A stretch of 8,663 bases of DNA from a virus (IMGVR_UViG_2690316149_000023); one strand, 5' to 3'; shown: positions 3,268-8,663, counted from the first letter of the stretch. Notes: generated by a model not told the origin, from the letters alone. A program made the numbers and translations.

Positions 3268-3780
3268 ATGATGCCATTTGCTCGTTATTTCTGCATTTTC
3301 ATAAACGTTGGTTTGGGAGAAGGTTCGGCATTACCCGTTGGTGTGCCTGTTCCGTGGCCTTCCGCCACTCCGCCAACGGGGTGGCTAAAATGTAACGGAG
3401 CAGTATTTTCTTCTGAAAAGTACCCAAATCTGGCAAAGGCTTACCCAACATTAAAATTACCAGATTTACGCGGTGAATTTATTCGTGGCTGGGATGATGG
3501 GCGCGGGATTGACTCTGGTCGTAACTTATTATCTGCACAGAATGATGCAATTCAGAATATTGTTGGTTCTTTTGGGCGTACCCAGCTTTTTAGAGACGTA
3601 CTTAGTTCAGGGCCATTTAGTCAACATGGGCAAGTATTATCTACAGGTCTAAAGGAAGCCGAAATTATTGAGGGTTATGGCGCTTATAACTGGACATTCG
3701 ACGCATCTCGCTCAGTTCGCACAGCATCTGAAACCCGCTCCCGTAACATCGCCTTTAATTATATTGTGAGGGCTGCATGA
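3268..3780 (+). CDS. tail-fibre C-terminal variable segment (Sv1 cassette), duplicate copy lacking the constant N-terminal region; likely silent or promoterless
   Basis: From 3308 the sequence and translation ([66 protein letters not shown]...) are identical to the C-terminal half of the full-length fibre gene at 6139..6900. The PxGxxxPWP...GWLxCNG...LPDLRGxFIRG pattern is typical of Mu S / P1 S / e14 Stf-type receptor-binding ends. The ORF-track start at 3268 lies in the invertase promoter region and may not be used. Confidence 0.5.
3296..3321. other. invertase crossover site 1 (gix/pix/hix-like 26-bp site), next to the invertase promoter and start
   Basis: TTTTCATAAACG-TT-GGTTTGGGAGAA matches the Gin-family site pattern TTxTCxxAAACCxxGGTTTxxGAxAA at 25 of 26 positions. 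The 1,031-bp repeat identity begins exactly at the central dinucleotide (3308). Confidence 0.8.
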
Positions 3781-4338
3781 TAAGTAAAGCTGTATTAAAT
3801 AATGAACTCATCGCCACAAAGGCCGGAGACATTACCGTTTATAATTATGATGGTGAAACACGGGAATATATTTCCACATCAACTGAATATCTTGCTGTGG
3901 GTGTTGGTATCCCGGCATGTTCCTGTTTAGATGCTCCTGGCTCATATAAAGCTGGTTATGCAATTTGCCGTTCTGCAGATTTTAACTCATGGGAATATGT
4001 GCCAGACCATCGCGGTGAAATCGTCTATAGCACCGAAACAGGAGAATCAAAAGAAATCACAGTTCCGGGTGATTACCCTGAAAATACAACCACTATCGCC
4101 CCGTTAACGTCATACGATAAATGGGATGGTGAGAAATGGGTGACCGATACTGAGGCACAGCATAACGCCGCAGTAGACGCGGCAGAAGTACGGCGCCAGT
4201 CACTGATTGATGCTGCTATGGCTTCCATTAGTCTGATTCAGCTGAAATTGCAGGCCGGGCGGAAGCTGACGCAGGCAGAAACAACCCGGCTTAACGCTGT
4301 GCTGGATTACATTGACGCGGTGACTGCAACAGATACCA
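3308..4338. repeat. direct repeat copy A (1,031 bp), apparently identical to 6428..7458
   Basis: Identical translations and spot-checked identical nucleotide lines at a constant offset of 3120 bp (for example 3361 against 6481, 3781 against 6901, 4261 against 7381). Boundaries are defined by mismatches at 3307/6427 and 4339/7459. Confidence 0.85.
3777..4338 (+). pseudogene. tail-fibre assembly (chaperone) gene U1, duplicate copy truncated at its 3' end by the IS
   Basis: Identical to 6897..7458 of the intact 201-aa gene. Identity stops at 4338, where IS sequence begins. The ORF-track frame 3777..4727 reads through into the IS and is an artefact. Confidence 0.75.
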
Positions 4339-4364
4339 TTTTTACTGTAAAACCGTGGCCAATA

Positions 4365-5243
4365 TTACTTGACCACTACAAACGGCGTCAGCCCACCGTT
4401 ATAATGGTGAGGTCTGACGCTGTTGTAGTAGTTCAATATGTAATCATTAATTTGCTGCCGGGCCTCGTCCTTGCCTGCGTAACCATTCGTTGGCACCCAT
4501 TCTGTTTTCAGACTGCGGAAGAAGCGTTCCATGGGGCTGTTATCCCAGCAGTTTCCCCGCCGACTGACGCTTTGATTTATTCTGCAACGCCAGAGAAGTT
4601 GTTGATATTTAAGGCCTGTATACTGGCTTCCCTGGTCGCTATGGAACACGACATCCCGGGGTTGGCCACGCGTCTCATAGGCCATCCGCAGGGCACTGCT
4701 TATCAGTGCGGTATCGGCATGCGCTGACAGACTCCAGCCGATAACCCTGCGGGCAAAAAGATCCATAACAACCGCCAGATAGCACCAGCGATTTCCTGCC
4801 CAGAGATACGTAATATCTCCACACCATACCCGGTCTGGCTCCGGTACTGCGAACTGACGCTCAAGCAGATTCGGCAGGCTGGTATGCTCCTGACGGGCAT
4901 TTTTATACTGATGTTTTCCGGGCTGACAACTGCTCAGGTTCAGATATTTCATCAGACGTCCGGCACGGTAACGGCTCATCGGGACGCCGTTTTGAGTCAG
5001 CATTTCAGCCAGAGTGCGCGCGCCCGCAGAGCCCCGACTTTGGTTCCACGCCCGGCGTATTTCGCTGCACAACCTGACTCGTGCCGGATTAACCGTATCG
5101 CGTCGTTTTCGCCAGTACCGGTAACTGCTGCGGTGTATTTCCAGAGCAGAACACAGGCTGACAACCGTGTGGCTGTCACTTAGTCTGGCGGCTATCGTGA
5201 ACCGTTCAGCGAGTCGGACATTAAGAGCGCGGTAGCCTTTTTT
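4365..5243 (-). CDS. IS3-family transposase OrfB (DDE integrase-like catalytic domain), expressed as an OrfAB fusion by -1 frameshifting
   Basis: The frame is open from the slippery site to 4365 and sits in the -1 frame relative to orfA. The translation ([12 protein letters not shown] ... [28 protein letters not shown] ... HSDQGSQYT ... [19 protein letters not shown]) is typical of IS3-family OrfB. Confidence 0.85.
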
Positions 5244-5539
5244 AATATCGTATTTTGTTCCTCCAGACGGCGAACTTGCTTTTCCAGCTCGCGGATACGT
5301 TGCTGGTCTGGAGTAATGGGTGTGGCAGAGGGCGTAATACCCTGGCGCTCTCGCCTGAGCTGGCGTACCCAGCTCTCAAGCGTGGTTGAACCGACATTCA
5401 TCGCTTCACTGGCCTGTCGATATGAGTAGCCCTTATCAACAATCAGCTGTGCACATTCCAGCCTGAACTCAGGGGTGAAGGTTCGTTTGGTTTTCTTGTT
5501 CATTAAGTCACCTGTTTTGTGTTGTGGTGAGAATATCAC
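5192..5539 (-). CDS. IS3-family transposase OrfA (HTH and leucine-zipper regulatory protein), 115 aa
   Basis: [22 protein letters not shown] ... [18 protein letters not shown] closely resembles IS911 OrfA, including the C-terminal [13 protein letters not shown] segment. A6G slippery heptamer at 5237..5243 (minus-strand A AAA AAG). Confidence 0.9.
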
Positions 5540-5575
5540 CTTTCATCAGGTGGCCAAATTTAGTGTGCCACTACA

Positions 5576-6900: not shown

Positions 6901-7458
6901 TAAGTAAAGCTGTATTAAATAATGAACTCATCGCCACAAAGGCCGGAGACATTACCGTTTATAATTATGATGGTGAAACACGGGAATATATTTCCACATC
7001 AACTGAATATCTTGCTGTGGGTGTTGGTATCCCGGCATGTTCCTGTTTAGATGCTCCTGGCTCATATAAAGCTGGTTATGCAATTTGCCGTTCTGCAGAT
7101 TTTAACTCATGGGAATATGTGCCAGACCATCGCGGTGAAATCGTCTATAGCACCGAAACAGGAGAATCAAAAGAAATCACAGTTCCGGGTGATTACCCTG
7201 AAAATACAACCACTATCGCCCCGTTAACGTCATACGATAAATGGGATGGTGAGAAATGGGTGACCGATACTGAGGCACAGCATAACGCCGCAGTAGACGC
7301 GGCAGAAGTACGGCGCCAGTCACTGATTGATGCTGCTATGGCTTCCATTAGTCTGATTCAGCTGAAATTGCAGGCCGGGCGGAAGCTGACGCAGGCAGAA
7401 ACAACCCGGCTTAACGCTGTGCTGGATTACATTGACGCGGTGACTGCAACAGATACCA
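6428..7458. repeat. direct repeat copy B (1,031 bp), apparently identical to 3308..4338
   Basis: See copy A. Confidence 0.85.
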
Positions 7459-7502
7459 GCACCGCGCCGGATGTCATCTGGCCTGAACTACCGGAGGCGT
7501 AG
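6897..7502 (+). CDS. tail-fibre assembly protein (chaperone) U1, 201 aa
   Basis: Start is coupled to the fibre gene stop. C-terminal region ([51 protein letters not shown]) is typical of Tfa / gpU / gpG-family chaperones. The 3' end overlaps the convergent U2 gene, as in Mu G and P1 C segments. Confidence 0.9.
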
Positions 7503-7917
7503 GCCATTCAATATCTGGAGCACTGGAGGTATCAACCAGTTCCAGTGCGTCCAGATAATCCAGCCATAAATTATATTGTTCCAGCTCGTAACCTTTCAGA
7601 CGACCAATAGCAGCTTTGCCAGGCCACTGATGGGTATTGATGTAGGTATTGACTTCTGAAACCAAAGATATCTTTTTCATTTCAGCCGCCAGCATCTCAT
7701 CCTCTTTTGAAGGCGGCGGGGAATTAATCCATATTGGCCGTCCTGAACTGTCAGCGCCAATTTCTTTCCCTTCTGGATGCAGCCCAAGAAATTGCTCATA
7801 TGTTTCTCTGGTAATTTCAATAACATCATCAGGAAGCGTTCCCGCATCCTCATATTCTGGAAACAATTCTTGCAGATAAAAACTTTTACTTGCGGGTGAA
7901 AAGAATACTGAGTTCAT
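7474..7917 (-). CDS. tail-fibre assembly protein (chaperone) U2, 147 aa, partner of the alternative fibre tail Sv2
   Basis: Lies 2 nt downstream of the minus-strand fibre gene. The C-terminus ([26 protein letters not shown]) shows the same Tfa-type signature as U1. Confidence 0.85.
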   Translation of the reverse strand: MNSVFFSPASKSFYLQELFPEYEDAGTLPDDVIEITRETYEQFLGLHPEGKEIGADSSGRPIWINSPPPSKEDEMLAAEMKKISLVSEVNTYINTHQWPGKAAIGRLKGYELEQYNLWLDYLDALELVDTSSAPDIEWPTPPVVQAR

Positions 7918-7919
7918 TC

Positions 7920-8663
7920 TTACCGTCCAATGATTAACGCTGAGACGCTGGTATCTGAAGGAAAGGCTGCATTCAGTGGTTTGTCGACTTTGAACACAAT
8001 CGTATTATTCCCCCTGACAGCGGCAAAAGAACAAACCGCCGTCGCGTATGAACCTGTAATATTACTGGATACACCACCATAAGCTGTTGTTGATACCAGA
8101 GGGATAACGCCCAGCACCTTATTAGGAAATACAAAGGGCAATGTGGCTGTGGCAATATAAGACTTATTAGAACCTGTAATGGCATAAGCATTATCAGTCA
8201 TTCCATTCATCGCCACTGGACCGCTTATACTTACAGTAACCATCTGAATGATTAGCCCGTCAGGTTGACGAATCACAAAATTTCCATTGCCACCAGTAAC
8301 CGTCCAGAAAGACATATCAGGGATTTGGTTTTCCCCGTTGCCCACATTTCGTTTTGCCGCTTCTCCCAAACCAAGGTTTTCGAGAGCCGTTTTCACCGTG
8401 CCATCAGATTTGATATCGCCAAACGGATTCTTGCGGCTTAACAGCAGCGCACGAAGCGCGGTAAGCAGCTGGTCATGCCGCCCCTTCTCCAGGCTGGCAC
8501 CGGATGCCTCCACCACGCTGCAGAGTTCTTCCTGCAACATGTCAAAGTAGTCATCATCCAGATCGGTGGCAGGTGTGCCGGTCTGGGGGTTACCACGGGT
8601 AAAACCGTTCTTACCCGCGCCGAACTTATCCTTCTGCGCGGTTTTCGTGTCTATACGATGCAT
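7920..8663 (-). CDS. tail-fibre protein, second full-length copy (same constant N-terminus Sc, alternative variable C-terminus Sv2), 247 aa
   Basis: The first 101 codons are nucleotide-identical (as an inverted repeat) to 6139..6441. After the crossover site the sequence switches to a different Gly/Ser/Thr/Asn/Val-rich C-terminal domain ([35 protein letters not shown] ...). The window ends exactly at its start codon, so upstream context is not visible. Confidence 0.9.
8360..8663. repeat. inverted repeat arm B (304 bp visible, window-limited)
   Basis: See arm A. Confidence 0.85.
8361..8386. other. invertase crossover site 3 (26 bp), inverted orientation relative to sites 1 and 2
   Basis: TTCTCCCAAACCAAGGTTTTCGAGAG is the exact reverse complement of site 2. 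Confidence 0.8.

Follow-up and report, generated by a model that had tools for sequence, protein, structure and literature searches.

The closest described counterpart of the locus analysed here is the P region of e14, a defective prophage of Escherichia coli K-12 found at icd, whose genes run in the order ymfQ, fibre head, crossover site, variable tail, tfa, tfa', second variable tail, second crossover site and pin, with PinE as the invertase. Related switches are the G segment of phage Mu with its invertase Gin, and those of Cin in P1 and of Hin in Salmonella; the hix core is AA. Systems with more than two sites are also described: Min of plasmid p15B has six crossover sites, and each of its segments brings a different alternative C-terminus for the fibre, with the result that the isomers encode different fibres, while the R64 shufflon relies on the tyrosine recombinase Rci, which acts on 19-bp sfx repeats with pilV as the target.

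As for the window, namely the whole stretch of 8,663 nt that was analysed, the element that hosts it is a decayed Mu-like prophage remnant of E. coli beside ssrA; it is devoid of upstream tail genes, and the smpB-ssrA-island context also occurs in relatives. The gene order of e14 is retained, its two crossover sites both recur here (26/26), and Pin is identical to PinE at 172 of 184 positions (93%), which bears out the preliminary description in its assignment of the locus to the Gin/Pin type. The identity with Mu Gin is 143/193 (74%), and the pairing of Resolvase and HTH_7 domains, together with the layout and placement of the sites, is shared with the Mu, P1 and Salmonella switches. The window differs from e14 in its location at ssrA instead of icd, in its variable cassettes, which are either ~89% identical or unrelated, in an IS that truncates ymfQ, and in a 3,120-bp duplication that brings a third site (Table 1).

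Table 1. Coordinates of the features identified in the window
Feature	Position	Strand	Description
ssrA (tmRNA)	40-402	+	ARAGORN, tag peptide ANDENYALAA; chromosomal attachment point of the island
Hypothetical ORF	949-2457	+	502 aa, between ssrA and pin; island cargo, outside the switch
pin	2687-3241	-	Intact serine DNA invertase, 184 aa; Pfam Resolvase 1.1e-51, HTH_7 3.2e-14
Site 1	3296-3321	-	Pin-proximal crossover site, TTCTCCCAAACC AA CGTTTATGAAAA; 26/26 with the e14 pin-proximal site
Block Q, copy 1	3303-4338	+	Inner half-site, headless varA C-terminus (to 3780), tfaA nt 1-562 (3777-4338); Pfam Collar, Caudo_TAP
Duplication joint	4328-4382	+	Microhomology AACAGATACCA, 11 nt (4328-4338); inverted terminal 53 nt of the IS (to 4380); filler AA (4381-4382)
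IS3-family insertion sequence	4383-5575	-	1,258-bp element, of which positions 66-1258 are present; Pfam HTH_Tnp_1, rve, rve_3
ymfQ	5576-6135	+	Mu gp48-like baseplate gene, without ~first 21 nt (cut by the IS); Pfam Phage_Mu_Gp48 1.1e-26
Fibre gene	6139-6900	+	Complete, 253 aa; constant head C (6139-6415), site 2, varA copy 2; Pfam Collar
Inverted repeat, perfect, 304 bp	6139-6442 (left arm), 8360-8663 (right arm)		Arms end at sites 2 and 3
Site 2	6416-6441	-	Extra constant-region-type crossover site, TTCTCCCAAACC AA GGTTTTCGAGAG; 26/26 with the e14 head-proximal site
tfaA	6897-7502	+	Intact tail-fibre assembly gene, 201 aa; Pfam Caudo_TAP 6e-32
tfaB	7474-7917	-	Alternative tail-fibre assembly gene, 147 aa; Pfam Caudo_TAP 6.4e-27
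Second fibre gene	7920-8663	-	Complete, 247 aa; constant head C', site 3, varB; ATG is the last triplet of the window
Site 3	8361-8386	+	Constant-region-type crossover site, same sequence as site 2

Regarding the crossover sites, each consists of two imperfect inverted 12-bp half-sites separated by a 2-bp core, 26 bp in total, as in Mu gix, whose sequence differs; the core here is AA. Sequence comparison found all three 26-bp sites where the preliminary description had put them, and it agreed with the view of site 2 as a constant-region-type site that lies in direct orientation relative to site 1 and in inverted orientation relative to site 3. Sites 2 and 3 match at 26 of 26 positions, a match reached in none of 200 shuffles, and the spacer between them is 1,917 nt (6443-8359). 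Sites 1 and 2 match at 21 of 26 positions with an offset of 3,120 bp; the inner half-site and the AA core are common to all three sites, and the outer half-site of site 1 is of the pin-side type. Sites 1 and 3, in inverted orientation, occupy the two canonical places, next to the invertase and where the constant part of the fibre gene meets its variable part, and they flank two alternative cassettes of tail plus tfa; site 2 is a further site of the head type. All three sites are probably Pin substrates. A crude scan (G-N13-C / AT-rich) for the Fis-dependent recombinational enhancer, which in this family lies in the 5' part of the invertase gene, returned a motif at nt 94-108 of pin, the same position as one in gin, and established no properly spaced pair.

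The third site does not stand alone, because it is carried on a 3,120-bp copy of the distal end of the locus plus the IS. The copy appears in the window as two sets of long repeats: a direct one of 1,036 bp, in which 3303-4338 corresponds to 6423-7458 at 1,035 of 1,036 positions, and an inverted one of at least 304 bp, whose right arm is cut by the window end. The direct repeat starts within sites 1 and 2; its lone mismatch, at 3307, falls inside the site, and 1,031 bp are exact. Direct and inverted repeats together represent one and the same duplication. Flipping the window in silico, with the midpoints of sites 1 and 3 as breakpoints, made it collinear with strain 602687 over 4,475 bp; after this block came the inverted 53-nt IS end and then a 1,320-bp direct repeat, 100% identical, at an offset of 3,120 bp. 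No long inverted repeat was left after this 1x3 flip, and the only non-collinear part was a single joint (53 nt inverted, TT filler, microhomology); the flipped isomer is thus a tandem segmental duplication, with two head-to-tail copies ~100% identical and a single novel joint. The duplicated unit comprises the 5' part of tfaA (first 562 nt), varA, the site, the fibre head, the truncated ymfQ and the IS. The repetition of the site is far above chance, but it is due to segmental duplication.

The anatomy of the joint was read by aligning it with the intact IS of strain 602687. The microhomology is the sole 11-mer common to tfaA and the IS, and the longest word that they share; the inverted 53-nt piece stops exactly at the IS terminus (4380, ...CCACTACA), an end that neither in-vitro handling nor an assembler would easily produce. 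Transposase insertion is not the origin of the joint. Simple insertion of the IS into tfaA was considered and rejected: tfaA is joined 53 nt inside the IS end via the microhomology, this end is inverted, and the opposite end of the IS abuts ymfQ and not tfaA. The filler AA and a 12-nt loss are predicted by no standard IS3-family reaction. The IS itself matches, at 100% identity, the copy next to ymfQ in strains 602687 and CD45, and it is probably immobile because one inverted-repeat end is scrambled and the C-terminus of the transposase is altered. The junction between IS and ymfQ is also present in 602687, CD45, L020 and L023-L025, and the alignment to full-length ymfQ begins at window position 5572.

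Inversion of the segment is seen at the canonical locus of relatives: between the complete genomes of strains 602687 and CD45 there is an exact inversion of 1,917 bp, with 0 mismatches and with breakpoints inside the sites, one of which is of the site 1 type, and L006 and L007 likewise represent the two states of the canonical locus. With three sites, state enumeration gives four inversion isomers that are formally reachable; all four encode solely C-varA and/or C-varB, three of the four encode both fibre variants at once, and in none does the extra site yield a new variant. The preliminary description had derived consequences for each pair of sites (2x3, 1x3 and 1x2), and its arithmetic is correct. 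The 2x3 inversion flips the segment as described, but its swap of tails has no new outcome, for heads C and C' are identical over 304 bp within the window and the same two proteins result. The suggestion of more than two states, as in a shufflon, stands for the four isomers, but not for an organised nested system, given a site that is absent in the relatives examined and adds no coding variant. Similarly, the 1x2 deletion would have the expected size of 3,120 bp, but it is exactly the product that RecA would generate from the 1,036-bp direct repeats, and it is therefore not diagnostic of the invertase. With Min the locus shares the family of the invertase, more than two sites in the tail-fibre region and more than two isomers. 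The likeness to the R64 shufflon lies in having several sites and several isomers; a shufflon in the strict sense was rejected, the sole recombinase at the switch being a serine invertase. It should be noted that the present isomer is also reachable without a 5-kb Pin event, if one canonical flip by Pin is combined with two inversions by RecA across the long repeats, so that this isomer is not diagnostic of Pin acting on the outer pair of sites.

Looking at the relatives, the third site and both joints were found in none of 5,426 complete E. coli genomes; the third site was also absent from the 20 contexts returned by two exact-protein look-ups, all canonical, and from the 11 loci with the same cassette, each with exactly two sites, 1,938 bp apart. 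The joint at 4328-4382 was not found in any collection searched. The three-site architecture is not maintained in the related elements examined. As for the single proteins, the 253-aa fibre occurs as an exact match in 10 canonical contexts, and the 744-nt second fibre gene is annotated likewise in strain CD45.

These data are best read, with modest confidence, as an e14/Pin-type two-site tail-fibre switch that bears a recent, private and unstable duplication of 3,120 bp. The distal end of the switch would have been duplicated in one orientation, producing a second head-proximal site; the flipped isomer would represent the simple head-to-tail tandem duplication, and a single inversion that paired the pin-proximal site with the outer of the two duplicate sites would have turned it into the isomer of the window. 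The joint would mark a replication template-switch event, possibly started at an IS end cut by the transposase. The structure is considered unstable, since RecA can recombine the direct repeats and so remove the extra copy, a reaction that would restore the canonical locus. The repeats, the collinearity after the flip, the match of the sites to e14, the inversion among relatives and the lack of a third site elsewhere are observations; the existence of the duplication in the cell, the route of its formation and the action of Pin on the extra site are inferences.

The main alternative, tentative and for the third site already raised in the preliminary description, is that the true genome has the canonical two-site locus, and that the structure came from the assembly or the library, through merged orientations, a chimeric molecule (e.g., from a template switch in whole-genome amplification) or mixed strains. 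There is a precedent at the same class of locus, since in E. coli EC958 the tail-fibre orientations of a prophage coexist in culture and give spurious contigs, and Forde et al. 2014 recommend caution on artefactual duplications in the invertible tail-fibre regions of phages (PMC4134206). The same phenomenon is apparent for the present switch: PLSDB holds three circular 1.92-kb 'plasmids' that are the invertible segment alone, deposited spuriously, while the chromosomes of the same strain series carry the segment too, and the draft contigs L012-L015 end at the crossover site. In addition, the window is 99.9% identical to the L006 type over 6-3324 and 100% identical to the 602687 type over 3303-8379, and this mosaic of two lineages could stem from recombination in nature, inside the 209 bp at site 1 over which the two types are identical (3114-3322), or from a mixed-strain chimera. 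The two copies are identical save at 3307, where the site types differ, which is what a consensus would look like, and no similar structure was present in any collection searched; the inverted piece with its microhomology joint, which we take to resemble amplification chimeras, was counted on the same side. The artefacts of EC958, however, are contigs of alternative orientation, and they leave the microhomology and the inverted IS end of the joint unexplained. Mis-joins in graph or overlap assembly arise where a shared repeat reaches the length of the k-mer or the overlap; an 11-nt microhomology with a 2-nt filler is too short for this, hence both joints need real molecules. The end of the inverted piece at the exact IS terminus points to transposase cleavage in the cell, the contig runs through a multicopy IS of 1.26 kb and an exact repeat of 1 kb, so that the reads must have been long and would cover the whole structure, and one Pin flip gives a clean tandem duplication, an event common in vivo.

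If the duplication is real, the extra site may be irrelevant, with Pin using the canonical pair only and RecA performing any further rearrangement via the long repeats of 1,036 bp (direct and inverted) and of at least 304 bp (inverted), which are excellent substrates for it. This is improbable, even if one canonical Pin flip and two RecA inversions lead to the present isomer: a 1x3 event by Pin alone explains that isomer more parsimoniously, and the sequence of site 2 is that of a proven functional site. The distance to the enhancer is an argument in favour of RecA, as in the isomer of the window sites 2 and 3 are both ~3-5 kb from its expected position and in native Hin the enhancer is ~100 bp from one site (PMC4817059), but enhancers act at a distance, and inversion still occurs when it is ~700 bp away (PMC4817059). 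Very improbable, and close to refuted, is a system that evolved for nested or multi-site inversion, like a shufflon or Min, and in which the third site is maintained for extra states. The locus does offer three competent-looking sites with a common inner half-site and AA core, an intact Pin and four reachable isomers, and other multi-site fibre systems with a serine invertase exist, such as Min of p15B, which is mentioned in PMC4134206. Unlike in Min, the extra segment here is a near-identical duplicate with debris, which adds no new protein and belongs to an architecture that is not conserved: apart from the mismatch at 3307 it equals its parent, and its contents are a further copy of varA, tfaA and ymfQ in truncated form, and an IS that is damaged. 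No isomer yields a new fibre variant, the third site is lacking in all the relatives examined, and the prophage is a remnant that lacks the upstream tail genes.

Returning to the preferred reading of a two-site switch with a recent duplication, it is possible, if doubtful, that the duplication is real and that Pin uses all three sites, so that the locus would be a multi-site inversion system at the moment of its origin. One site would have been copied by an accident of replication or at an IS end, and the 5-kb inversion between the outer pair would then have carried the IS along; if true, the window would be a natural snapshot of a possible origin of Min-type multi-site fibre switches. A fibre fragment of a cryptic prophage, StfE2 of e14, has been reported in phage defence (PMC12529663), and the simultaneous presence of two fibre variants might matter should fragments of this type have such a role.

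Finally, the 502-aa ORF of the island has no Pfam match and a weak PADLOC match to LmuA (E=0.007); the exact protein occurs at the equivalent position in 10 other contexts.

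The invertase locus of the window belongs to the e14/Pin (Din-family) tail-fibre switches. In e14, the cryptic prophage of E. coli K-12, the gene order is ymfQ, stfP, tfaP, tfaE′, stfE′, pinE; its two crossover sites match the two site types of the window at 26 of 26 positions each, and PinE is identical to the window invertase at 172 of 184 residues, versus 143 of 193 for Mu Gin. In the complete genome of E. coli 602687, the canonical two-site cassette lies beside ssrA and consists of IS, ymfQ′, fibre (253 aa), tfaA, tfaB′, varB′, and pin; CD45, another complete genome, has it in the opposite orientation. 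The two differ by an exact 1,917-bp reverse-complement, with 0 mismatches and breakpoints inside the 26-bp sites, and this inversion is site-specific because the inverted homology flanking it measures only ∼20 bp; thus, the canonical switch is, or recently was, active. Both orientations also occur in the pair of related loci L006 and L007, with a different cassette, and the draft contigs L012−L015, including one of 2.86 Mb, stop ∼170 nt past pin, near the position of the window's crossover site, as expected if the population holds both orientations; these ends are indirect evidence of segment flipping in ordinary cultures. Finally, 602687 and CD45 contain the pseudogene fragment of a second recombinase, adjacent to ypjA and a few kb from the switch; at 6929−7096 of locus L001, it is 81% identical to part of pin (window 2972−3118), and it is left over from a further invertase copy of this region.

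Features of the window and their coordinates
Feature	Coordinates	Strand	Remarks
ssrA (tmRNA gene)	40−402		start of window
502-aa ORF	949−2457	+	no Pfam match
pin, intact 184-aa serine invertase	2687−3241	−	Resolvase + HTH_7
Crossover site 1	3296−3321		pin-side type
Crossover site 2	6416−6441
Crossover site 3	8361−8386
Direct repeat, 1,036 bp	3303−4338 = 6423−7458		rightwards from sites 1 and 2
Inverted repeat, 304 bp	6139−6442 / 8360−8663		leftwards of site 2, rightwards of site 3

In the window, the tail-fibre material comes after the invertase gene, and the DNA between the direct-repeat copies contains an IS3-family element, whose transposase ORFs lie on the minus strand, together with a baseplate gene of the Mu gp48/YmfQ type missing ∼21 nt from its 5′ end. 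The preliminary description had placed three 26-bp crossover sites here, and all of them were recovered at exactly its coordinates; its arithmetic was also correct, with a spacer of 1,917 nt between sites 2 and 3 and an offset of 3,120 bp from site 1 to site 2. Sites 2 and 3 are identical and inverted, TTCTCCCAAACC AA GGTTTTCGAGAG, and two matches of this type were observed against 0.00 expected from shuffles. Site 1 reads TTCTCCCAAACC AA CGTTTATGAAAA on the minus strand and is direct relative to site 2; it shares the inner half-site and the AA core with the other two, and differs in the outer half. What had gone unnoticed is that the sites are the edges of long repeats: the direct repeat has a single mismatch, located in the site, and is exact over 1,031 bp, while the inverted repeat is perfect, represents the 5′ constant portion of the fibre gene, and is cut short only because the window ends at the ATG of that gene.

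The origin of these repeats became apparent from an in silico inversion of the window, with exchange at the core dinucleotides of sites 1 and 3. The flipped window contained one 4,475-bp block collinear with 602687, the sole differences being 17 substitutions in pin, followed by a 53-nt inverted IS end and then by a 1,320-bp direct repeat of 100% identity, offset by exactly 3,120 bp and reaching the window end; no long inverted repeat remained. Therefore, the window amounts to the canonical two-site locus with two changes: a 3,120-bp unit (tfaA nt 562−1, varA, site, fibre head, ymfQ′, IS) is duplicated once, head to tail, and the DNA from the pin-proximal site to the outer duplicate site is inverted once. 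The duplicated unit brings its own site with it, which is the third one, and a third site is not a family feature: each of the 11 retrieved loci that contain this cassette has two sites and no more, 1,938 bp apart, and look-ups of the identical 502-aa protein and the identical 253-aa fibre each gave 10 contexts, all canonical. None of 5,426 complete E. coli genomes covered at least 80% of the window in one place. The main value of the locus is one of caution: an apparent three-site invertase system is explained by duplication of a standard e14/Pin switch, with nothing new in enzyme, site type, or regulatory logic.

Regarding the duplication joint, its anatomy was derived from the alignment with the intact IS copy of 602687. 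Here, tfaA does not meet an IS end; instead, the 11-nt word AACAGATACCA at 4328−4338 is common to tfaA (nt 552−562) and to the IS (positions 53−43 from one end), being the only 11-mer that they share, and the joint sequence runs AACAGATACCA...CCACTACAAACGGCG. Past this word, the terminal IS part goes outward to its exact terminus, ...CCACTACA, at 4380; after two unexplained bases, AA, the IS is picked up again at its position 66 (4383), now in reverse, and continues as far as its other terminus (5575), which abuts ymfQ′ exactly as in 602687 and CD45. Overall, the terminal 53 nt of the IS are inverted in place, 12 nt are lost and AA is inserted, with the break falling precisely on the CA-3′ terminus; the terminal repeats have both become direct, and the transposase C-terminus is altered and shortened. 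Such a rearrangement is unusual and fits no standard IS3-family reaction, and insertion by a transposase did not produce the joint between tfaA and the IS. That the IS had simply inserted into tfaA was ruled out, as the junction is 53 nt inside the IS with that end inverted, the target is not duplicated, and ymfQ borders the far end of the IS. Three further models were rejected. Had the IS undergone an intramolecular replicative inversion, head-site-varB would come after it and nothing would be duplicated; a palindrome folded back around the IS end would put pin, not a second fibre head, after site 3; and a Pin-mediated exchange between sister chromosomes was discarded because the novel joints are not at crossover sites.

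Replication template switching is a frequent origin of tandem duplications, and it probably made this joint, since microhomology, a short inverted insert, and filler are its signature; a transposase-nicked IS end may have been used, as suggested by the inverted piece beginning exactly at the CA-3′ terminus. As for the isomer seen, it would be reached most simply if Pin inverted the 5 kb between the outer sites once, taking the IS along. Another path to it would begin with a canonical Pin flip and be completed by RecA, with the long repeats serving for two further inversions. Given this RecA-assisted route, use of the outer site pair by Pin is likely rather than certain.

As to what three sites can do, enumeration gave four inversion isomers, so that the proposal of more than two states holds as a formal count; however, over the length contained in the window the two fibre heads do not differ, and the extra segment repeats varA and tfaA′, so the isomers encode nothing beyond the usual two proteins, the constant head joined to tail varA or varB, and three of the four encode both at once. 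The tail swap ascribed to inversion between sites 2 and 3 takes place between identical heads and is silent at the protein level, and RecA can also achieve it through the inverted repeat of at least 304 bp. Beyond the isomer count, the idea of a nested, shufflon-like system found no support, the third site being a duplicated copy that relatives lack; this extra copy is accidental and unstable.

Sites 1 and 2 are directly repeated. Invertases of this family synapse via an enhancer-bound, topologically defined complex, and if the asymmetric cores fail to pair after one exchange, they are not ligated and knots arise instead of recombinants (PMC4817059, citing Heichman 1991, Kanaar 1990). Between direct sites, a Pin-mediated deletion should therefore be rare. 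RecA, by contrast, is expected to remove the same 3,120 bp by recombining the 1,036-bp direct repeats, which would restore a canonical CD45-type locus. A motif scan for the Fis enhancer gave no convincing location; in native Hin, ∼100 bp separate the enhancer from one site, and a distance of ∼700 bp still permits inversion (PMC4817059).

Whether the extra DNA was present in the source genome has to be weighed against the record of this locus, which is a proven trap for assemblers. PLSDB lists three circular "plasmids" of ∼1.92 kb (CP148528.1, NZ_CP148539.1, and NZ_CP148540.1) made of the invertible segment alone (varA, tfaA, tfaB′, varB′), 99.5% identical to window 6440−8362; chromosomes of the same strain series (CP148535.1, CP148531.1) also carry the segment, and these "plasmids" are almost certainly assembler by-products of its flipping. 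Spurious alternative-orientation contigs were described by Forde et al. 2014, with an explicit warning of artefactual duplications in phage regions (PMC4134206), and the window is a lineage mosaic that could be a mixed-strain chimera. However, an assembler joins sequences where they share long repeats, whereas the joint here has an 11-nt microhomology and a filler, and it falls exactly at an IS terminus; moreover, a contig that passes through both a multicopy IS of 1.26 kb and an exact repeat of 1 kb indicates that long reads spanned them, and a single ordinary Pin flip leaves a plain tandem duplication.

On balance, and as a judgement, a real, private duplication is somewhat favoured, an assembly artefact is possible but doubtful, and the remainder goes to variants. 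The 300-bp probe across both joints was absent from INPHARED phages, PLSDB plasmids, and the 5,426 complete E. coli genomes, and none of these genomes had the tfaA-IS joint; both joint sequences had no match in GTDB representative genomes, JGI metagenomes, or IMG/VR, and exact-protein look-ups were empty for the joint-specific ORFs, a tfaA::IS fusion (316 aa) and a C-terminally altered OrfB (235 aa). If physically real, the duplication exemplifies a one-step origin of extra crossover sites, hence of multi-state inversion systems, and also a template-switch joint anchored exactly at an IS terminus. That a multi-site system was caught at birth, with Pin working across 5 kb, is a tentative reading, and its interest, if true, would be moderate.

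The mosaic has its own structure: window 6−3324 is 99.9% identical to the L006/FT130 type of island, and window 3303−8379 is 100% identical to the 602687 type. In islands matching the left part (ssrA, the 502-aa ORF, pin), what normally follows is a Mu-like tail module that is complete and has another fibre cassette, while the right part matches the IS-truncated remnant of 602687 and CD45, whose ssrA-to-pin interval differs. The switch-over falls within 209 identical bases (3114−3322); with the last diagnostic mismatch at 3113, the boundary may be anywhere in this interval, and not necessarily at site 1. Natural recombination, in keeping with the accumulation of elements at ssrA, is compatible with the mosaic, and so is a mixed-strain chimera. 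Elements stacked between smpB/ssrA and the pin island include a P2-like prophage in locus L008 and a P4-like element in locus L023.

As for the 502-aa ORF, a PADLOC scan returned a marginal LmuA (Lamassu) match alone (E = 0.007, residues 368−485); at least 10 other genomes have kept the ORF in exactly this position, with ssrA on one side and pin on the other, and it may be cargo of the island, with a defence or an accessory role. Downstream of ssrA, at 528−556, there is a candidate intrinsic terminator, with a GC-rich hairpin followed by a T-run, aaagcccgctaatgcgggcttttt.
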